Numbered from the stretch's first letter, positions 15,352 through 63,477 are shown. The stretch: DNA of 64,000 bases from an uncultured Opitutia bacterium (GCA_903855995.1 CAIOAN010000013.1:78875-142874), one strand, 5' to 3'. The notes: a model not told the origin generated them from the sequence alone. Numbers and translations are program-made.

Positions 15352-15669
15352 ATGCGCCACCCCTTCGCCTTGTTTGGTGCCCTGCTCTCTATGTGCTTCG
15401 TCGGTTGCTCCGGCGGCCCGAGCCATATCGAAGGCATCTCCGAAGGCATGAACAAGGCAGACGTCGTCGCGGTGCTGGGCGAACCGCGCACGGCTTCGAC
15501 TGTCACGGGCTCCGAGTACCTGACCTTTAAGGTGTGGCGCAGCTTCTGGCGTCGGCAGCCCGGTAATTATCGCGACATTCACTACGTAAAGTTTACGGGC
15601 GGACGCGTGGTGGAGTACGGCGACATTCGGACCCTTCCCGAGAATATCCGTAGTCAGCTGAAGGAATGA
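15352..15669 (+). CDS. small lipoprotein (SmpA/OmlA/BamE-like)
   Basis: MRHPFALFGALLSMCFVGCSG lipobox, followed by GMNKADVVAVLGEP, which is typical of SmpA_OmlA-like domains. Confidence 0.55.
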   Translation: MRHPFALFGALLSMCFVGCSGGPSHIEGISEGMNKADVVAVLGEPRTASTVTGSEYLTFKVWRSFWRRQPGNYRDIHYVKFTGGRVVEYGDIRTLPENIRSQLKE

Positions 15670-16360
15670 ACGATCGGATCCTGTTGCAGCTGTCTAGTCA
15701 TCATCATCGTCCTGGGCCTCGCCTTCTTTGCCTTCGTCCCCCGCTGAGCCAGGTAGGGATGCGATGACATCGCATCCGCTGTATCCGGTAGGGTCGGGGC
15801 CGCGTCACGACATAGTTGTAGCTCACGGCTGTTCTTAGTTCTTGGTTCGTAGTTTTTGGTTATTTCAGGCCGCTGTATCGTGGTAGGGGTAGCACCGCGT
15901 GCTGCCCTAGCTGTATCAAGGTAGGGACGCGTCGGCGCACGCGTCCGCCTTGATCCACGGTCGCGACACCGTCGCGCCCCTACCACTCCCGCCACCTACC
16001 AACCGAAACGATACATTCACTCAAAGGGAAACCGGAAACCGGGATTAATGCTTCGGGCATGATTCATTCCAGGTGACGGGTGACGGCCACAGTGGTCAGC
16101 CTTTCGGGTGTCAGCCGTTCAGCCTTCAGCCGCCGGGTGCCGGGTGCCAGCTCCCGATGGCCGAACGGCCGATTCCTGAACTCCCGATGCCCGTGCCCGT
16201 CACGCGTCACCTGAATCGCTGCAGCTTTCTGATCAACCGAGCCTCTAAGCCGCGGGCCTCTCGTTTGAATCCCTTGCCAACGTGTCAACTTGCCAGCGTG
16301 CCCCTCGCGCAAGCGCGTGTCCCCTTGCGCTTATAGCGCAGGCCCCCATTCATAAGCGCC
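15670..16360. repeat. mosaic intergenic repeat block (left island border)
   Basis: GTAG-headed hairpins at 15752-15777, 15882-15910, 15920-15946 and 15959-15984. Stuttered words ggtgacgggtgacgg (16072-16086) and gggtgccgggtgcc (16135-16148). Inverted copy of the gaggcc..ggctcggttgatcag module at 16229-16260. Confidence 0.85.
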
Positions 16361-19359: not shown

Positions 19360-19755
19360 ACGACCAGCCGCCGAATCGGCATGGAGGGATGTAAGGAAAG
19401 ATTGAGACATCAGTGGTGGGGAATCAAGCGCGATGAAATCGACAATGCGCCGAAGACTTCGCCAGGAGAATCTCGATCCAAAGGGGTCTTCGTCCTACAT
19501 AATAGCTGAGGCATTACCTCCCCTGTCTCTCTGCATTCCCAACCGCTAACCGCCAACACCTGATACAGGTAGGGCTGGCCATCCTTGGCCGGCCGCGGTC
19601 GAGCAAGGATGCTCGCCCCTACCCAATGACCTAGGGACTTTTCCGGCTTGAGTGTACGCAGACATTCGACACATTGAATTACGCAATGGGGTCTGGCATG
19701 AAAGGTAGCCTCACCATGGGCGGCTTTCCGCAAGGATAGTCCAGACCTCGCCCCT
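19360..19755. repeat. mosaic intergenic repeat block
   Basis: cccaaccgctaaccgccaacacc (19538-19560), a long GGTAGGG...CCCTACC hairpin at 19568-19624, and a 43-nt element at 19630-19672 shared with 58528-58570. Confidence 0.8.
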
Positions 19756-23319: not shown

Positions 23320-24471
23320 GGGGTCAGGCCGTTACCGACTCTGATTGATACTAAATCTGCCTGAAAGGCCTGAGTTTGGTATCAGTCATCAGGAGTAACG
23401 GCCTGACCCCTTGGATTAGGGCATAGCCCCTGAAGGGTAACCTGTTTGGATTTACCGACGTATTCATGGCAACAGGAGTCATGCCCCGATCAAAGCGAAC
23501 GCTCTCCAACCAAGGCCTCTATCATGTCTATAACCGAGCGGAGCTCGGCCAGCCCATCTTCGAGTCAGACGGCGCCAAGGCCGTCTTCCTTGAGACCATC
23601 CTCCAGGTGAGCGAGACGCTGGCTTGGGAACTCCATGCCTATGCGATCATGACCAACCATTTCCATTTGGCGTTAACGACGCCCCAGGCGGATATCGAAA
23701 TAGGCATGCATGCCCTCCTTTCGGCCTTCGCGAACAAGCACCGTACCTTCCGAGGGTCGATCGGACACGTCTTCCAATCCCGTTACAGAGCAGACCACTA
23801 CCCTCTCGGCCAGCTTGCCGGAGACAAAGTCGACTATGTCCACTACAACCCAGTCGCGGCAGGAATCGTATCCCTGGATGAACTTCGGCATTACCCATGG
23901 AACAGTTACCGACTGGTCTGGCAGCCCGCACTTCGCGGCCGACTGACGATCGGGCCGATGCTGGGAGCATTGTACGGACTCAAAGACGATCCTGACGGCT
24001 GGCACGCATACGAAGAAAGACTGCGCCTGCGAATGGCATCGGCCGAACGTAGCCTCACCGATGACGAGCTTTTCGGTTTGGCGCGTAAGACCAAAGCCGG
24101 GGCACTGCCCGAAGCGGTCGGTCTACCCGTACGTGCCGGGATGACATCCGACGGCCACCGACAGGAACGTGCCGCCGAACAAGAGCGTATCCTAGGCGAA
24201 GCGCTCGCCGCCGCCGGTATCCTGCCGGAGGATCTACCTGGCCTCGGCAAGAGTGCCGGCGTTAAGGTCGCGGTAGCGCAGGCCATCCAGGCGCGTACCT
24301 TGGCGAGTTCGGCATGGTTGGCCAAGGCACTGCACCTCGGCAGCGCCGCCAACGTGCGCAAACTTCTACGCCAAGCCAAGGGGTCAGGCCGTTACTGAAT
24401 CTGCCTGATACCAAATCCGCACTATATCTATGCGTTTAGTATCAGTACCTGACGAGTAACGGCCTGACCCC
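23320..24471 (+). mobile_element. RAYT/IS200-like unit: Y1 transposase gene bracketed by two copies of a ~91-nt hairpin element
   Basis: Hairpin copies at 23320-23410 and 24380-24471, in the same orientation. Each has perfect 16-nt arms ggggtcaggccgttac / gtaacggcctgacccc. The second copy overlaps the last codons of the gene. Confidence 0.7.
23466..24398 (+). CDS. REP-associated tyrosine transposase (RAYT) / IS200-like Y1 transposase with C-terminal HTH-like tail
   Basis: 310 aa. Motifs LYHVYNRA, HUH motif in AYAIMTNHFHLAL, catalytic Tyr context VFQSRY. Confidence 0.8.
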   Translation: MATGVMPRSKRTLSNQGLYHVYNRAELGQPIFESDGAKAVFLETILQVSETLAWELHAYAIMTNHFHLALTTPQADIEIGMHALLSAFANKHRTFRGSIGHVFQSRYRADHYPLGQLAGDKVDYVHYNPVAAGIVSLDELRHYPWNSYRLVWQPALRGRLTIGPMLGALYGLKDDPDGWHAYEERLRLRMASAERSLTDDELFGLARKTKAGALPEAVGLPVRAGMTSDGHRQERAAEQERILGEALAAAGILPEDLPGLGKSAGVKVAVAQAIQARTLASSAWLAKALHLGSAANVRKLLRQAKGSGRY

Positions 24472-24517
24472 GTGTTCGGCCTCCTTGATGTAAAAGCCTG
24501 GTCCAACCTAGATCTGG

Positions 24518-25333: not shown

Positions 25334-27139
25334 ATGCCCCTCGACGCCAAAGTCATCAGCCTCGAACAACTCCTGCTCAAGTACCCTTGCCTGGACGTGC
25401 CGAACTACCAACGCACCTTCAAATGGACGGAGGAAAAGATCACGACCACCTTTCAGGACATCCTTAACGGCCTGGACTTCACCGGCAGCGGGGACAATCG
25501 AGGACACTTCCTCGGCTCCGTGGTCATCTGCAAAGACCCTACCAACAATAAAATCGACCTCGTGGATGGCCAGCAGCGCCTGACCACGCTCACCATCATG
25601 CTGTGGAGCCTGGCAAAACTTGCCGATAAACAAACTCTTGAGAAAGCCAGTCGGACCATCCTACAAGCCGACCGACTGAATCCACGCATCCTGCACAAAG
25701 CGGGCAATAAAGAGCTCTGCAGCGATCGGGACGCTTATCGCGAAGTGGCCACGAAACTCGAAGTGAACCATAGTCCCGAAGCCGGCGACGCTGATGACGA
25801 GGGCGTCATCCAACGAAACGCCAGCTGGCATGCTGCGTTAGTAGACACTCCGATCTATAAGGCTGGCGCCTGCCTGGATGATCTAGCCGCGAGAGCCTGC
25901 GACGCCTATCTGCGCGACACGAATACCACCTCTCGCAGTAAAGCTGCGTCCGAAATCTACGCGCGACTCTCCGAGGGCGTCAAACTCATCATCATCGAGA
26001 CAGACCAGAGAAAGGAAGGCATGCGCGTCTTTGCGTCCATTAATGCAGGAGGAACTCCGCTACAAACGTGGGAACTCATCATGAGCGCATTTTACACTCA
26101 CGGACCGGACCCTAAGCAACAATCGCTCGTTGAACTGACCTTCGAGAGCGACCGCCATTCGATATCCAAGATCTTAGGCAACGACAACGAAGACTCTACG
26201 GTGAACAACGGATTGCGCACGTTCTGGCTGTCCACCCGTCGATTCGCCCGAATGGACGATCTTTTTAACGAATTCAACGAGACCTTAGCCAAGAGCACGG
26301 ATCCAAAGAAGACCCACTCTGACCTACTCAAACAAATCCTATTCAGCGTGCCGCTCCTCAAGGCATTTGATACCGCACCAAACACAGTCGAGAATGCAGT
26401 CGCTGAGAAGACTTACTCTTTCGCGAGTCTTTACCCGTTAACCGTCGCGATGAAGGATAAACTCGCCCGGCCGATCCTATTGAGCGTATTGCTTCGATTG
26501 AACAAGGACCCGAAGGCCGCCGACGACGCGCTCCGTCGCGTAAGTTTCGCCCTCGAACGAGCCCGTATGAAGCTCATCATCTGCAAATACGGCGCGAATT
26601 TCATCGAGAAGCCTTACTCACAGCTCGCAGTTGAGATCTACAAAGGGAAACACTCCGAAGACCCCGAGGTAATCGAGGAGAAGGTCTACCAATTCCTGCG
26701 GGACATCAAGGGATTCCCCGCCCAGGATGAGTTTGAGGCCGCATTCCAACGCTACGCACCTTCCGGCAGGGACCAAAAACTACCCAAACTGATCGCTATC
26801 CGCCTCCAGGACGCGCTGCGAAACCCCGATAAGATCCCCTTCCTCTATCTGAGCACCCCGAAGAAATCCGAAGACTCTTTCAAACTCGTGAAAGGTCTGA
26901 GTTTTGACGCCGACGCTAGTGACTATGAGGCCAAAAAGCTTGGCTTTAAAAGCTCCGCCAACCTTCAGGCGATCGGCGGCTCACTAGGCAACCTCTTCAT
27001 GGCCGACCCTGAAACCATGGAAATCGATCATCGCATCGAATTCAATGGAAAGACCGAAGTCGCCGACCTAGGAGAAGATGCGATGACGGAAAGACGCGAT
27101 ATGCTGGCAGATCTCGCCGCTCGCATCTGGCACTTTTGA
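25334..27139 (+). CDS. DUF262 (ParB-like nuclease/NTPase) domain protein, GmrSD/SspE-related N-terminus
   Basis: 601 aa. Motifs VPNYQRTFKW and LVDGQQRLTTL. The C-terminus keeps only GSLGNLFMAD. I cannot find the EH..P part of a DUF1524 HNH-like motif. Confidence 0.8.
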   Translation: MPLDAKVISLEQLLLKYPCLDVPNYQRTFKWTEEKITTTFQDILNGLDFTGSGDNRGHFLGSVVICKDPTNNKIDLVDGQQRLTTLTIMLWSLAKLADKQTLEKASRTILQADRLNPRILHKAGNKELCSDRDAYREVATKLEVNHSPEAGDADDEGVIQRNASWHAALVDTPIYKAGACLDDLAARACDAYLRDTNTTSRSKAASEIYARLSEGVKLIIIETDQRKEGMRVFASINAGGTPLQTWELIMSAFYTHGPDPKQQSLVELTFESDRHSISKILGNDNEDSTVNNGLRTFWLSTRRFARMDDLFNEFNETLAKSTDPKKTHSDLLKQILFSVPLLKAFDTAPNTVENAVAEKTYSFASLYPLTVAMKDKLARPILLSVLLRLNKDPKAADDALRRVSFALERARMKLIICKYGANFIEKPYSQLAVEIYKGKHSEDPEVIEEKVYQFLRDIKGFPAQDEFEAAFQRYAPSGRDQKLPKLIAIRLQDALRNPDKIPFLYLSTPKKSEDSFKLVKGLSFDADASDYEAKKLGFKSSANLQAIGGSLGNLFMADPETMEIDHRIEFNGKTEVADLGEDAMTERRDMLADLAARIWHF

Positions 27140-55095: not shown

Positions 55096-56814
55096 ATGGC
55101 TAAAATTTACCCAGAGAAGTACGTCGGAAAAGATGGATCGGAAAAGCGGTTCTTCGAAAAGCTGCGCGGGCTTAACTCCACCCAATGGACTTTCTTTCAC
55201 TCGGTTGATATTGCCAGACATTCGGAGAAAAGGTCCGGTGAGATTGATTTCATCGCCGTATCAAGAACCGCCCTGTTCACCCTTGAGGTAAAGGGAGGAC
55301 GAATCAGCAGGACTGCTGGCGCATGGTACGCAAACGGCCAGGAGATGGAGGAGAGCCCGGTCAAGCAAGCCATCCAGAACTACCATGCATTTGATAAGTA
55401 CCTCAAGAGGTCGAAACTGCCCCGGCTACCCGGAGGCCACTGCTGCGTCTGGCCGGATGTCGCTTTTGAAACGACCACAGGAGAGTGGGAGAAAACGTGC
55501 ATCATCGATAAAGGAGGTAGCGAAATGCTCTTCGATTCCCTGCAAAAGGCAGAGAATCACTTTCGGGATGAGGCAACACGGCTTAGAAGATCAACTCCTA
55601 CCCTTTCCGAGGAAGAATATAGCCGGCTTTGTGGCGCAATCCTACCCGACATCGTACAGCATGTATCAACGAGCCAGGCCCTAGCACGAGATAAGGTGGA
55701 GCTCTTACACCTTAGCCAATCCCAGCTTGGTGTGCTCGATAGAATTGAAGGCAATCCGCGAATGGTCATCTCTGGCCCCGCGGGATCTGGAAAAACCATC
55801 CTTGCGTACGAAGCCTGTAAAAGGATTTTGCGTGAGAATCCTCAATGGAAAGGAGCTTTCGTCTGCCAATCCAACTTCCTGGCGAAAGACATCGATCGAC
55901 GTTACCAGGAGGACAAACTACATGAGCGCCTACTGATTCTTACCCTAGAGTCATTAGCACCATTTTATATTATAAACGGACTCGGCATAGACATGCATGC
56001 TGCCGGAGAAAGCAAGCAACCGATTGAAGTGCGTTTCGTAGGGCACGGACACGCACCAAACCAAACAGCTGGCATCAATTCAAAAAATCTCTTGGATTTC
56101 GTAGTGATTGACGAAGGACAAGACATCAGGAAATGCCCTATATTCCTTACGATGCTCAATTCATGCATCAAAAAGGGCCTGAGCGATTGCAGGCTTATGT
56201 GGTTCCAAGATCTCGACCAAAGTATCGCCGAAAAGTTGGCTCCCAGCTCTCATAAAAAAATGTATCGCGACATCATCGACCCCGACCCGTTAGCCAATTG
56301 CTTTCATTACAAACTTGATCCAATTAATTACAGAAACCCAACCGAGATAGCCAATGTATCCGCCAAGCTGATCGGCCTAAAAACAAAGTCATCATTCAAC
56401 GGAAACATCACGACCTGCATCAAGTTAGTCAAAAGTCAGGAGCCACTCAGCGAACTCAGTAATTTAGTTAAAGAGCTAACCGGAAAAGATGTACCCGATT
56501 CAGATATTGTCGTCGTATCTGTGACCGGCGAATCGTCCAAACGAATCGAGCAAGGCCTAAGGGTATGGGGTAAACTTCTTGCGTACGATACAGAAGAATA
56601 TGACCGATTGGCTCCAAGGATACACCCCAAAGACACCATCCTGTGGTCCAGACTCATCGACATAAAAGGTCGTGAATTCCCAGTCGTAATCCTTATCGAC
56701 TTGCCCGAATTCAAAGACGCTTTTGATAAATATCTGATGTATGTGGCGATGACCCGCGCCAATAGTTTGCTAATTGCGGTTGGATCGGAATCCCAACTTA
56801 GACCACTTACTTAA
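55096..56814 (+). CDS. NERD-domain + SF1 helicase (paralog of 27145..28845)
   Basis: 572 aa. Motifs SGEIDFIAVSRTALFTLEVKGG, ISGPAGSGKT, VVIDEGQDI, IKGREFPVVILID ... YVAMTRA. Starts 4 nt after the AddA-like stop. Confidence 0.8.
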   Translation: MAKIYPEKYVGKDGSEKRFFEKLRGLNSTQWTFFHSVDIARHSEKRSGEIDFIAVSRTALFTLEVKGGRISRTAGAWYANGQEMEESPVKQAIQNYHAFDKYLKRSKLPRLPGGHCCVWPDVAFETTTGEWEKTCIIDKGGSEMLFDSLQKAENHFRDEATRLRRSTPTLSEEEYSRLCGAILPDIVQHVSTSQALARDKVELLHLSQSQLGVLDRIEGNPRMVISGPAGSGKTILAYEACKRILRENPQWKGAFVCQSNFLAKDIDRRYQEDKLHERLLILTLESLAPFYIINGLGIDMHAAGESKQPIEVRFVGHGHAPNQTAGINSKNLLDFVVIDEGQDIRKCPIFLTMLNSCIKKGLSDCRLMWFQDLDQSIAEKLAPSSHKKMYRDIIDPDPLANCFHYKLDPINYRNPTEIANVSAKLIGLKTKSSFNGNITTCIKLVKSQEPLSELSNLVKELTGKDVPDSDIVVVSVTGESSKRIEQGLRVWGKLLAYDTEEYDRLAPRIHPKDTILWSRLIDIKGREFPVVILIDLPEFKDAFDKYLMYVAMTRANSLLIAVGSESQLRPLT

Positions 56815-57497
56815 AAGTAAACGATAGCGCCCGGCGGATGCGATGTCATCGCATCCCTACCTATTGAAATTTCTGCCACCTGCCACCCGAGGCTGCCACC
56901 AGCCACCTGGAATGAATGCAATCAGTGCATGACGTAGTCCTGTCCCTGCCCTGCGTCCACCGTGCGGCGGCCTGGTTTCGCAGCGGTTCACCATGCCAGC
57001 AGATCCCCGCACGACCTAAGGTCGTGGCAGTGTCTGTTGATTTCTATTACGATTTTGCTCGACAGAATGAGAAGCTTCTGATGTACTGTCTTCCTCTGAG
57101 ATAACCAATGCCGAGCACTTGCCGTCGGGGCACCTAATCGAACCGACGGCCGCTTAAGCGACTCAGAAAGCGTGGTAAAACCACGCGGGGCCACTCTGTT
57201 CCGCCGATCCAAACCGGCATCACAGCTCCCCGGGGGCAGTCATGCCCGCATGGCTCAAGTTGACCAGTTGATCAGAGGCCCGGAGGCCCAGAACGCGAAA
57301 AACGACCTAAAACAACGAACTAAGAACTAAGAACAGCCAGAGCAACTAGGGCAGCACGCGGTGCTGCCCCTACCCTGCACGGCTAAGCCGCGAGCGGTTA
57401 GCGGTAAGCGGTTAGCGGTTGGGAACGTCGCGAGACAAAGACCCAACGAACCAAGAACTAAGAACATTTTAACAAAGAACACCTTTTCTTAACCTTT
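56815..57497. repeat. mosaic intergenic repeat block with a ~190-nt unique core (57040-57230)
   Basis: Hairpin plus CCCTACC at 56836-56861, GGTGGC-word array (inverse) at 56873-56910, a module at 56928-57003 shared with 63329-63405, 57270-57294, 57346-57375, and gcggttagcggtaagcggttagcggtt at 57394-57420. Confidence 0.85.
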
Positions 57498-58223: not shown

Positions 58224-58661
58224 GGCGCTAGAAGCGCCGAAGAACCACTAGTTGACCGGTTGATCAGTTGGCCGGTTGGCCAGAGCAAGACGAACTAGAG
58301 GCACAGAGGCTCAGAGGCTCGGTTGACCAGACCATGCGAGAGTATCGAGTATGGAGTATTGAGTGTAGGGGGAGGCAGCGCTAGGCGTGTTCTTTGTTTT
58401 TTGTTCTTGGTTCATGGTTCGTTGTTTATTGCAGCGGTCTCTAGGTAGGGACGGCGGAGCCGCGAGGTGGAAGCGGTTGGCGGGAGAGACATAGCTGTAT
58501 CGAGGTAGGGACAGTACCACGTGCTGTCCTAGGGACTTTTCCGGCTTGAGTGTAAGCGGATATCGGACACTCTTTAGTCATCGGTCGAGAGGCCGATGAG
58601 AAAGGTCCCTCCTCGGTGACAAGAGCTCTCGGGAGCTCTTCCGTCAGGATAGCTGAGGAGG
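58224..58661. repeat. mosaic intergenic repeat block
   Basis: gttgaccggttgatcagttggccggttggcc, 58298-58330 (gaggc..ggctcggttgaccag), gagtatcgagtatggagtattgagt, gttcttggttcatggttcg, GTAG hairpins at 58444-58467 and 58504-58534, and the 43-nt element at 58528-58570. Confidence 0.85.
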
Positions 58662-59261
58662 TCAACCTTCACCGATCACCGCAAGGTGCACGATGGGATT
58701 ACCCAAGGCCTCAATGGGCCTGGTGTCTTGGCTAACAATCTGACGCCAGACCGCCCACGTGCAGTAATCGGCAATCTGCAGTTCGAGACTGGAAGCAGAC
58801 GAATGGAAGTGAACCGTGCGATGTCCTGCGCCCTGACGGACGGCCTTCATGATGGCCTTGCGAGAACGCTGCAAAGGCACGCGATCGGCATATACGGGAC
58901 AATCGCCGGAGGCCGGCTGCGATAACGACAAGACCAACTTGAAGAGGTCGACGTAAACCTGAGACAAATCCTCAGGCGGCTTAGTGCAGGTCGACTTATC
59001 CAAGACGATTGCGAAGACCTGGGAACCAGCACCCGAAGCCGCCAAACGACGCATGAAAGCCCCTCGGACGAATGGGGTATTGGCGCTCGCATGGAATGAC
59101 TCGATATCATGCCCCTGCGCATTTAGCTCATAGCGCAGACAAGACAGTTCACCGGAGCGGATGGCGCTGATATCCAGCAAGATTGCGCAGACCATCAGGA
59201 ACGGGGTCCCTTTTCCGGTGAAATCGAAGTTTCCTGCTTCATCTAGGAATAGACATTTCAT
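58662..59261 (-). CDS. DUF3800-family protein (second copy)
   Basis: 199 aa. N-terminal CLFLDEAGN and C-terminal LELQIADYC. Confidence 0.6.
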   Translation of the reverse strand: MKCLFLDEAGNFDFTGKGTPFLMVCAILLDISAIRSGELSCLRYELNAQGHDIESFHASANTPFVRGAFMRRLAASGAGSQVFAIVLDKSTCTKPPEDLSQVYVDLFKLVLSLSQPASGDCPVYADRVPLQRSRKAIMKAVRQGAGHRTVHFHSSASSLELQIADYCTWAVWRQIVSQDTRPIEALGNPIVHLAVIGEG

Positions 59262-59626
59262 GACGGGTATTCGAAGAGGCTTCGCCTCGACCTCAAATCG
59301 CCAAAGGCCTCAGAACGGGCATAGAGGGTGACCACTAAGAAAGGTAGGGGCGCGACGGTGTCGCGACCGGGGGTAAGGCTCTTTGAGGTCGCAATATGCG
59401 ACCACAAAAGGGATCCGGACGGACGCGTCGCCGACGTGTCCCTACCCAATGCAGCTAGGGCAGCACGCGGTGCTGCCCCTACCTCGATGCAGCGGATGCA
59501 ATGTCATCGCATCCCTACCCGATGCAATCCCTGCCACCTGCCACCCGAGGCCGCCACCTGCCACCTGAAACGGGTAACTGGCCTACTTGACAGTTGGTCA
59601 AGTGCGGGCAAATCGGCGCCCGAACC
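59262..59626. repeat. mosaic intergenic repeat block: cluster of four GTAG-headed hairpins plus a GGTGGC-word array
   Basis: Hairpins at 59343-59368 (GGTAGGG first), 59421-59447, 59455-59483 and 59494-59520 (each ending CCCTACC). Word array at 59529-59572. Confidence 0.85.
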
Positions 59627-60355
59627 ATGCAACCGCCTACCTCGATTCCCCCGACGAAGCTCCAGATTCGCGCCTATGATTGTAAATTGACCGCCCGGAA
59701 GGTGAAACTGGGGCTGGAAAAGCTGGTGGAGTCCTCCCCGGCCTTCAATGAGTCCTGGCTGCTGGGGGAATATGACATCGGCTCCCGCATCGGCGGCCTG
59801 GGGCAATACGGGGATATCATCATCCGCCACCGCACGGTGATGCGCGGCAAGCATGAGCTGACGGTCGAGCACCGCGCGGGCGACGAAGCCATGGCCCTCG
59901 AGATCGAGGCGGCCTTCGCCAAGGAGCTGACCCCGAAGGAGCCGCGTATGGCCCCGGGCAAGAAGCGCCCGGAAGGGATGGCCTATTTCTTCGAGATGAT
60001 CCGTACCTCGACGCTGAAGAACAAGGTGCTCATCGCGGACGCGGTCCTCGAGGAAGCCCATGACCTGTGCTTCGACGATTATCGCGAGGCCCGGGCCAAG
60101 CTCGAGTTCCTGAGCATGGTCCCGCGTCTCGGCGTCCTCCACACCAGCCTGGATGAGCGCATCCAGAAGGCCTACCGGGAAGCCAATCAGGTCCACGCCT
60201 GCCCGAAGGTCTGCCTCTACCAAGGCAAGAAGATCGCCCTGCCCCACCGGATGGTGGCGATCTCGGTGAAGCATGACTACATCCTGACCCTACATTTCGC
60301 CAAGCTGCCCGGATGCAAGATCGTGGTGGGATGGGTGGAGGAGAGGCAGTTCTGA
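59627..60355 (+). CDS. unknown-family protein, paralog B
   Basis: 242 aa from ATG 59627 (MQPPTSIPPTKL, aligned to the paralog A start). The tracked ORF starts at 59594. Confidence 0.65.
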   Translation: MQPPTSIPPTKLQIRAYDCKLTARKVKLGLEKLVESSPAFNESWLLGEYDIGSRIGGLGQYGDIIIRHRTVMRGKHELTVEHRAGDEAMALEIEAAFAKELTPKEPRMAPGKKRPEGMAYFFEMIRTSTLKNKVLIADAVLEEAHDLCFDDYREARAKLEFLSMVPRLGVLHTSLDERIQKAYREANQVHACPKVCLYQGKKIALPHRMVAISVKHDYILTLHFAKLPGCKIVVGWVEERQF

Positions 60356-61217: not shown

Positions 61218-61289
61218 GGAAGGGGCGCGACGATCTCGCTACCGGGGTGAGGGTTGAGGGACACGGGCGGATGCGATGTCATCGCATCC

Positions 61290-61655
61290 CTACCTGGCGG
61301 CGGATCGGAGGAGGCGGAGGAGTTCGGGGAAGCGTCCGTGGAAGGAAAATCCTTGGACGCGGAGGCGACGACGGCCGGCGATGATGTCGGCGGACCAGAA
61401 CGGGCCGTCGACCATCACGGCCTGATCTTCCAGCTGCGGCTCACGCGCCCAATCCCAGAGGCGCGCCTCGGTGGCGAGCTGCTGGAAGCGCCGCCAGTGC
61501 GACTGGCCAAACGGTCGCGAACCGGCGCAGCCATAGAGGGGATGCCGGCAGGCGAGATCGCCGTGGAGAACGCCCGCAGCAGCATCCAAGTGTATCTGCG
61601 GCCCAGAGGGCCTGCCCTCTCCCTCCCAGAACGTGATTTCGATTTTGTTTTTCAT
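61290..61655 (-). CDS. hypothetical protein
   Basis: 121-aa high-GC ORF starting 11 nt from the tRNA-like gene. No motif recognised. Confidence 0.35.
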   Translation of the reverse strand: MKNKIEITFWEGEGRPSGPQIHLDAAAGVLHGDLACRHPLYGCAGSRPFGQSHWRRFQQLATEARLWDWAREPQLEDQAVMVDGPFWSADIIAGRRRLRVQGFSFHGRFPELLRLLRSAAR

Positions 61656-62884: not shown

Positions 62885-63477
62885 AATAAATTTTAATAGA
62901 TAGTTGGCGGGGGACCAGACCGAGGTAGTGCAAAAGTGGGAGGCAACGTTTCGGGTGGCGGGTGGCAGCCTCGGGAAGCGGGTGGCGGGAGAGACAGCGC
63001 TAGGCGTGTTCTTCGTTCTTGGTTCATTGTTTTTTGCAGCGGTCTAGAGGTAGGGCGTGGCTCTCCGAGCCCGCCGTTGAGCGCTGAGAGAAAGTGCGAG
63101 AGTATCGAGTGTGGAGTATCGAGTATAGGCGGCGAGCTACGCAGCGTTGGTCCGCGAACGGACGGCTGGGGACAGCCGTCCCTACCGGCGAAGGCGGAGC
63201 CTTCGAGGGGACACGTGGGCATGGTGACATGGGGGCAAGGTGCGTAAGCGAGGGCCGCACGCCCCTACCCGTAACAGGTGGAAGCGGTTGGCAGTTAGCA
63301 GTTGGGAATACAAACGAGGCAGCTAGGGCATGACGTAGTCCTGCCCCTACCCTACAGCCACCATGCGGCGGCCGCGGCTTCGCAGCAGATCACCATGCCA
63401 GCAGTTCCCCCACGCGACATGGGGTCAGACACGTTCAGGATTCCGAACGAAGTCAGACCCCGTCGCGCGGCGTGGCG
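62885..63477. repeat. mosaic intergenic repeat block
   Basis: GGTGGC-word array at 62947-62989, gttcttcgttcttggttcattg, GTAG hairpins at 63049-63075, 63160-63186 and 63323-63352, gagtatcgagtgtggagtatcgagtat, and a module at 63329-63405 shared with 56928-57003. Confidence 0.85.

Follow-up and report, generated by a model that had tools for sequence, protein, structure and literature searches.

GTAG-headed hairpins in the window

The window analysed here is a stretch of 64,000 nucleotides (nt) from the genome of an uncultured Opitutia bacterium (G000:C13:78875-142874; genome of 2.66 Mb in 13 contigs, 62% GC, 97%-complete assembly). It contains short hairpins headed by the tetranucleotide GTAG, which are the subject of this study, and, at 23466-24398, a gene for a Y1 tyrosine transposase of 310 amino acids (aa). 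A first-pass annotation, made from the window sequence alone, had described the hairpins as a class resembling repetitive extragenic palindromes (REPs) with a 5' GTAG tag, and had taken the 23466-24398 gene to encode their REP-associated tyrosine transposase (RAYT). All of the hairpins that it listed were found again in place and in orientation, including the four at 59343-59520, one on the plus strand and three on the minus strand (Table 1). Our analysis makes it very likely that the hairpins are GTAG-tagged REPs, the non-autonomous elements of RAYTs (TnpA-REP; Y1 HUH enzymes of the IS200/IS605 superfamily). The genome holds about 300 units in over ten stem classes, and about half of them stand in doublets or in clusters resembling bacterial interspersed mosaic elements (BIMEs).

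The window contains 23 copies of the heptamer GGTAGGG, whereas dinucleotide-preserving shuffles gave 5.47 +/- 2.5 and none of them (0/100) reached 23. Sixteen of the 23 sites head a strict unit, GTAG plus a hairpin of 21-22 nt with at most one mismatch; the 16 window units were recovered by a strict scan for GTAG immediately adjoined by an ungapped hairpin of 20-23 nt that had no more than 1.5 defects. About five further heptamers belong to degenerate or bulged copies (15787, 18566, 58444, 63049 and 63269), and those at 25543 and 38764 look like chance occurrences. The association with palindromes extends well beyond the window: the whole genome contains 581 GGTAGGG sites, and a hairpin below -12 kcal/mol follows 28% of 973 GTAGGG sites. 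Of the eight control hexamers, seven gave values of 2.6-4.6%, and the remaining one, TAGGGG, which overlaps genuine copies, gave 12.8%.

Among all 256 tetramers, GTAG ranks first for directly adjoining a 20-23-nt hairpin (318 of 11,186 sites, 2.8%, against a background of 0.30%, about ninefold). A looser scan, allowing the hairpin at an offset of 0-3 from GTAG, gave an enrichment of only 2.7-fold and was replaced by the ungapped 20-23-nt model and the energy-based tests. Genome-wide, G-GTAG followed by a 21-22-nt GG...CC hairpin is present in 285-318 copies; 285 start with GG, the hairpin is 21 nt long in 219 and 22 nt in 86, and a G precedes GTAG in 291 of 318. The unit of about 26 nt consists of (A/G)G-GTAG, a GG clamp, a variable stem of 7 bp, a loop of 3-4 nt and a CC clamp, the stem totalling 9 bp. 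Its conservation ends at the GTAG head on one side and 1-4 nt past the hairpin on the other, and no terminal inverted repeats were seen beyond these edges.

Covariation of the stems

The pattern GGTAGGG-N17-CC selects by the head and the two outer pairs alone and is blind to the inner pairing. Of its 214 matches in the genome, 179 (84%) have Watson-Crick pairs at six or seven of the seven inner positions. Six control heads combined with N17 gave 160 matches, and the only one with five or more inner pairs was a frame-shifted genuine copy. Among the 103 distinct GGTAGGG-N17-CC sequences, 87.6% of the cells are paired, against 63.7% in shuffles (0/500 reached the observed value), and in 240 cells both sides depart from the commonest pair, compared with 87 cells in shuffles. 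Sliding the partner columns out of register left 35-41% paired. With compensatory changes at 7/7 variable stem pairs, the covariation noticed in the first-pass annotation is borne out. Taken together, the 285 units have 74 distinct 5' arms in five superfamilies joined by single steps, and neighbouring classes differ by compensatory base-pair swaps. Folded as single-stranded DNA (ssDNA), the four hairpins at 59343-59520 adopt the predicted shape with the GTAG head unpaired (z-scores in Table 1).

RAYT genes of the genome

Pfam search, protein search and tblastn with 18 RAYTs of the genus together identified exactly three small RAYT genes in the genome, RAYT-A, RAYT-B and RAYT-C; the genome-wide PF01797 search missed the gene on contig C7, which was recovered by the protein search and tblastn. 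All three carry the HUH motif PDH(L/I)H and the tyrosine motif Y..NP. Their scores against NF047646 (REP-associated tyrosine transposase; cut-off 80 bits) are 86.5 bits for the C7 protein, 75.1 for the one on C13 and 73.7 for the one on C10. With the C13 RAYT as query, an alignment over 123 residues to Escherichia coli TnpA-REP (PDB 4ER8) was obtained with both motifs in register (E = 3e-4, low identity). Each of the three genes has GTAG hairpins of its class to its left and to its right. At its core, the first-pass reading of the hairpins as REP-like elements with a 5' GTAG tag holds.

Stem classes and RAYT clades across the genus

For comparison we collected 30 RAYT loci: the three above, four from public metagenome-assembled genomes (MAGs) and 23 from whole-genome searches. 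Outside the focal genome, a recognisable RAYT open reading frame (ORF) is present at 23 loci, from 10 genomes of the same genus, three public Verrucomicrobiota MAGs and one genome of the same order. At 20 of these, a single stem type or a pair of types stands on both sides of the gene; the RAYTs of L015 and L042 have no GTAG hairpin within 260 nt and were left without a class. The GGGCAGCACCGCGTGCTGCCC stem of class G, present in the 59343-59520 cluster, flanks the class G RAYT in sister genomes (L016, L038).

A maximum-likelihood tree was built from the RAYT cores, omitting L019, L040 and L041, in which an ORF carrying both motifs was not found. In this tree each of the classes A, C, E, G, H and I forms a monophyletic group (support 88-100), and G, H and I together form one superclade; the stems of these three classes differ at stem pair 3 (G:C, A:T and T:A) and in the loop (CGC, CAC and TGC). 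When the stem labels were placed on this tree, leaving out L007, L015 and L042, the 11 states required 10 changes, which is the minimum, compared with 14-20 in 1000 label shuffles. The genus contains at least 11 REP classes, and each of them flanks a RAYT clade of its own. The stem variety had been read as a single family under structural selection; it comes instead from a multiplicity of such classes.

REP abundance and RAYT presence were also compared from genome to genome. Across 41 genomes of the genus, GGTAGGG-N17-CC has 76-233 matches in REP-rich genomes (16-38 for reversed-pattern controls) and 12-35 in REP-poor ones, with G032 as a borderline case (50 matches against 40 for the control). 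Within G001-G018, all nine RAYT-positive genomes are REP-rich, none of the six REP-poor genomes is RAYT-positive, and three incomplete MAGs are rich in REPs but RAYT-negative. The REP part of the 59343-59520 cluster matches hundreds of places in 35 of the 41 genomes. G012, of the same genus, has abundant classes that are absent or rare in the focal genome, such as GGTTGGCAC-TGC-GTGCCAACC and GGACCGCAC-CAC-GTGCGGTCC, each removed from class I or H by a single compensatory step.

In the sister genome G005 (88% DNA identity), the orthologous DUF3800 locus carries a different doublet, of class A, at the site of REP 58505-58529, and homology ends about 15 nt before the cluster at 59344 begins. Orthologous sites in G005 have either another REP or no REP, which is consistent with independent insertions and is not proof of mobility. 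The conserved element 3' of the DUF3800 gene starts exactly at the REP end (58505-58570; L022 = G005:C122, 1370-1440), and this shared junction suggests a preferred insertion point next to ...CCTAGGG.

Table 1. REP units and the 310-aa Y1 gene of the window, RAYT genes of the genome and flanking stems of RAYT classes. Positions are window coordinates unless a contig is named; z-scores refer to ssDNA folds.
Feature	Position	Strand	Remarks
REP, GTAG + GGGCGCGACGGTGTCGCGACC, variant of GGGCGCGAC class	59344..59368	+	first unit of the 59343-59520 cluster; DNA fold -9.4 kcal/mol, z -3.1
REP, GTAG + GGACACGTCGGCGACGCGTCC, GGACGCGTC class	59421..59445	-	one internal mismatch; z -0.4
REP, GTAG + GGGCAGCACCGCGTGCTGCCC, class G	59458..59482	-	perfect 9-bp stem; z -4.0
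REP, GTAG + GGATGCGATGACATTGCATCC, class C	59494..59518	-	one G-T pair; cognate RAYT on contig C7 (cf. L020); z -2.8
Four-class REP cluster	15753..15983	mixed	class order as 59344-59518, reversed; strict scan
Units of the 15753..15983 cluster	15753-15777, 15883-15907, 15921-15946, 15959-15983	+, +, +, -	degenerate copy at 15787
REP doublet, GGCTGGCCATCCTTGGCCGGCC and GGGCGAGCATCCTTGCTCGACC	19569-19594, 19597-19622	+, -	heads outward, 2-nt spacer
REP, class C (GGATGCGATGACATCGCATCC)	56836..56860	-	perfect stem; strict scan
REP, class G (GGGCAGCACCGCGTGCTGCCC)	57349..57373	-	perfect stem; strict scan
REP, class H, variant GGACAGTACCACGTGCTGTCC	58505..58529	+	abuts conserved 3' element of DUF3800 gene
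REP, class C	61269..61293	-	perfect stem; strict scan
REP, GGCGTGGCTCTCCGAGCCCGCC, class D2 variant	63050..63075	+	bulged 22-nt hairpin
REP, GGACGGCTGTCCCCAGCCGTCC, class D variant	63160..63185	-	22-nt hairpin; strict scan
REP, GGGCAGGACTACGTCATGCCC, CTAC-loop class	63326..63350	-	strict scan
310-aa Y1/HUH gene with own ~92-nt flanking hairpins	23320..24472	+	hairpins 23320-23412 and 24380-24472; outside the GTAG-REP system
RAYT-A, class A, 166 aa	C13:144391-144888 (window coordinate 65517-66014)		1.5 kb past window end; flanking stems GGGCGTGCG / GGATGACCG
RAYT-B, class B	C10:43045-43482		flanking stems GGTTGAGCG / GGCTGACCA
RAYT-C, class C	C7:324508-324924		flanking stem GGATGCGATG
Class D			flanking stems GGCGGGCTC / GGACGCCTC
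Class E			flanking stems GGGCGGGGC / GGGCACGAC
Class F			flanking stems GGGCGCGAC / GGGCGCCAC
Class G			flanking stem GGGCAGCAC
Class H			flanking stem GGACAGCAC
Class I			flanking stems GGTCAGCAC / GGTCGGCAC
Classes B2 and J			further classes from flanked RAYT loci

Placement and clustering of the units

Placement was assessed against greedy ORFs, without a gene finder. With ORFs of >=80 aa, the clusters at 15.7 kb and 19.6 kb fell inside genes; because the translations of these short ORFs look REP-derived and spurious, the test was redone with thresholds of >=150 and >=250 aa. ORFs of >=150 aa cover 86.5% of the genome, and 87% of the units lie outside them, and 92% lie outside those of >=250 aa; at most 14 copies are found inside long ORFs, mostly near ORF ends. 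REPs are most frequent in convergent intergenic spaces (11.5% occupied), less so in co-directional ones (6.9%) and least so in divergent ones (3.1%). The units thus sit preferentially at the 3' ends of genes, and a bias of REPs to unidirectional and convergent spaces is known (PMC3733652). They are not intrinsic terminators, since a T-run (at least five T in the next 8 nt) follows only 9 of 285 copies. A search of 58300-59800 against Rfam 15 returned only DicF, at chance level (E = 0.86) and outside the hairpins.

Neighbouring units are separated by gaps of 150 nt or less in 143 of 274 cases. The heads point outward in 81 of these 143, the spacer is 2 nt in 23 doublets, and clusters comprise up to six units. 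Doublets with a 2-nt spacer usually join two different stems, for example GGTTGAGCG with GGCTGACCA. The four-unit cluster at 59344-59518, for which a BIME-like arrangement had been surmised, recurs reversed at 15753-15983 with its class order and linkers conserved; the clusters are therefore BIME-like composites.

REP clusters also affect annotation and assembly. An ORF of 113 aa (15654-15995) and another of 107 aa (19410-19733) consist largely of translated REP clusters, and from a reading of their translations both are likely to be spurious gene calls from REP arrays; REP clusters can thus yield spurious ORFs of about 110 aa. They also break assemblies: three contig ends (C1 5', C8 3' and C10 5') terminate within REP sequences, and REP clusters or further RAYT loci may therefore be concealed by assembly gaps. 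Contigs C4 and C5, of 2904 nt each, agree exactly in the 70 bases at either end and have almost the same GC content; they are probably a duplicated or near-identical contig. Just upstream of the REP at 56836, the region 55096-56814 encodes a 572-aa protein with NERD nuclease and UvrD-like helicase domains; at 56.9% GC, against 62% for the genome, it looks like a defence or accessory island.

The Y1 gene at 23466-24398

The 310-aa protein encoded at 23466-24398 carries an HFH (HUH) motif and the tyrosine motif YVHYNP, and scores below threshold against both PF01797 (21.4 bits; cut-off 23) and NF047646 (50.4 bits). Its gene, single-copy in the genome, is flanked by two hairpins of about 92 nt in the same orientation, with GGGGTCAGGCCGTTAC arms and starting GGGGTCAG, whose folding energies under RNA parameters are -57.5 and -47.9 kcal/mol. 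The 3' hairpin overlaps the gene end and encodes its last codons and stop. Three more exact copies of the GGGGTCAGGCCGTTAC arm lie on contig C3 (97124, 97198 and 99763), and 24 arms were found at two mismatches or fewer. Homologues of about 299 aa occur in Verrucomicrobia metagenomes, where they bear the JGI label 'REP element-mobilizing transposase RayT'.

Tyrosine transposases flanked by long terminal inverted repeats unrelated to GTAG REPs, often with a GGGGWSAS motif, have been described as TIRYTs or TIRtrons (PMC3733652). By its flank architecture and motif, the gene at 23466-24398 would fit this class: like a TIRYT, it is bracketed by long inverted-repeat hairpins, here starting GGGGTCAG, the 3' one of which overlaps the gene end.

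Proposed mechanism

By analogy with E. coli TnpA-REP, a RAYT would bind the hairpin as ssDNA, reading the splayed GTAG base-specifically and the hairpin foot by shape and a few bases. It would then cleave at a nearby dinucleotide and move or copy single REPs or REP doublets. Stem mutations would be tolerated only where pairing and recognition by the cognate enzyme both survive, and the stems would covary for that reason. TnpA-REP of E. coli needs GTAG in order to bind and cleave, and contacts it base-specifically (PMC3479197), and co-evolution of RAYTs with their flanking REPs has been reported in Stenotrophomonas (PMC2817692) and also described for Pseudomonas (PMC3686654). The architecture, abundance, placement and covariation of the units and their association with RAYTs are directly supported by our data.

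Classes without a RAYT and alternative explanations

Several observations weigh against the reading of the hairpins as elements of RAYTs. Two of the three RAYTs (C10 and C13) fall just below the NF047646 cut-off, and the tree test shows a stable pairing of stems and RAYTs and does not prove co-evolution as such, because kin share labels. Furthermore, classes D to I, K and L make up about 60% of the strict copies (an estimate from class counts), and their cognate RAYTs are absent from the assembly; for classes D to I, RAYTs were found only in sister genomes. A tblastn search for RAYT remnants of the missing classes, made with the 18 genus RAYTs on the 97%-complete assembly, returned only the three known loci. 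In their number of exact master copies the RAYT-less classes nevertheless equal classes A to C: class H, which has no RAYT here, has 15 exact and 13 one-mismatch copies, and class C, which has one, has 19 and 8. Such homogeneity among orphan classes would not be expected if each class simply depended on its cognate RAYT.

The class D to I REPs of this genome are either relics of lost RAYTs or products of RAYTs hidden in assembly gaps, and the loss of a RAYT with persistence of its REPs has been documented elsewhere (PMC3686654). Resident RAYTs might also cross-mobilise non-cognate classes through the shared frame of G-GTAG, GG/CC clamp and fixed 21-22-nt hairpin, a possibility that we regard as doubtful. 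As an alternative to cross-mobilisation, the host could actively maintain the orphan hairpins.

Host selection could also be taken as the origin of the whole repeat family, in which case the hairpins would primarily be structural elements (3'-end mRNA stabilisers, attenuators or protein-binding sites), the RAYTs would be incidental neighbours, and the covariation would stem from selection acting on the hairpin as RNA or DNA. The bias of the REPs to convergent and co-directional spaces, that is, to gene 3' ends, agrees with this, as does the finding that RAYT-less classes are as homogeneous as RAYT-bearing ones, and a role as RNA elements has been proposed for many REPs (Di Nocera 2013, PMC3733652). 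However, such an origin does not account for the two-sided flanking of each RAYT clade by a particular stem class in many genomes, for the absence of RAYTs from the REP-poor genomes of the genus or for the invariance of the unpaired GTAG head; the scarcity of T-runs (9/285) and the lack of any Rfam match in the region searched also speak against it. Since a host function can coexist with mobilisation by RAYTs, it competes with the REP/RAYT explanation only as primary cause, and as such we consider it unlikely.

It is very unlikely that the 310-aa Y1 protein mobilises the GTAG hairpins, as the first-pass annotation had it. Its HUH and tyrosine motifs, its weak NF047646 match (50 bits) and the RayT name given by JGI to its homologues point that way, and it could in principle serve the orphan classes. 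However, no GTAG hairpin lies within 1 kb of the gene, which has unrelated hairpins of its own instead; tblastn found no match between the protein and the small RAYTs in either direction, and a PDB sequence search with it found none, 4ER8 included. We therefore rejected it as the cognate enzyme of the GTAG hairpins, on account of its own flanking hairpins, the missing GTAG hairpin and its distance from the RAYTs; the true RAYTs are those on C13, C10 and C7. An effect of composition or chance in a GC-rich genome, or an ordinary miniature inverted-repeat transposable element with terminal inverted repeats from a DDE transposon, is extremely improbable. GC-rich genomes do hold many short palindromes, with a hairpin background of 0.3% per position here, but no shuffle reached the window count (0/100) and the control heads yielded essentially no paired N17. 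Moreover, unit conservation stops at the head and 1-4 nt past the hairpin with no terminal inverted repeats beyond, and the copies go with Y1 genes, not with DDE genes.

Relation to known systems and significance

RAYTs, as domesticated or selfish transposases, and REPs, as their non-autonomous partners, are a textbook example. REP/BIME elements of E. coli with TnpA-REP were reportedly treated by Ton-Hoang in 2012, and, to our knowledge, Opitutus terrae was the only member of the Verrucomicrobiota described before for GTAG REPs. Compared by description, the present hairpins are like GTAG-17 to GTAG-20 of O. terrae, which have an unpaired 5' GTAG and a stem-loop of 6-9 bp (PMC3733652). O. terrae is rich in several GTAG families, with dimers 1-2 bp apart (PMC3733652), and several families per genome and dimers with such short spacers are features that our genome shares with it and with the GTAG superfamily. 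It also shares with this superfamily the bias to unidirectional and convergent spaces and RAYT genes flanked by their own REP family, called REPtrons (PMC3733652). The bacterium belongs to the same class as O. terrae, the Opitutae, reported as highly enriched (PMC3733652). It differs in its genus, one of uncultured Opitutae with genomes of 2-2.7 Mb, and in the few copies inside long ORFs, at most 14, whereas O. terrae has many intragenic REPs.

As with the SMAG/REP classes of Stenotrophomonas maltophilia and the Pseudomonas fluorescens complex, where 13 and 22 classes per lineage have been described, classes are defined here by proximity to their own RAYT (PMC2817692; PMC3686654). RAYT-REP co-evolution, a REP abundance dependent on RAYT presence and orphan classes attributed to RAYT loss are further points of likeness to those systems. 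Unlike them, the present system belongs to another phylum and keeps to a stricter frame, with an invariant GG/CC clamp and a fixed 21-22-nt length; its sister classes differ by single compensatory pairs, and each class has tens of copies, not hundreds. The REP/BIME elements and TnpA-REP of E. coli (PMC3479197) resemble it in the GTAG head, the imperfect palindrome and the BIME-like alternation of two REP types. In contrast, E. coli has one RAYT and Y and Z REP types with a functionally required bulge, and the stems here are mostly perfect.

GTAG REPs, multi-class REP/RAYT systems, BIMEs, orphan REPs and TIRYTs have all been published already, and the finding therefore adds an instance of a known element type. 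What is new is a genus-level map of at least 11 cognate RAYT-hairpin pairs, a modest addition that provides a well-resolved REP/RAYT example from the Verrucomicrobiota. At least 11 RAYT clades, with hairpins that keep a rigid frame and differ by single compensatory base pairs, lend themselves as a matrix to the question of which residues of the RAYT recognise which positions of the stem. If true, cross-mobilisation or host maintenance of the orphan classes would loosen the rule of one RAYT for one REP class and would make this compact genus a natural specificity matrix, in which the enzyme-hairpin pairs, at least 11 in number, differ by single base pairs.

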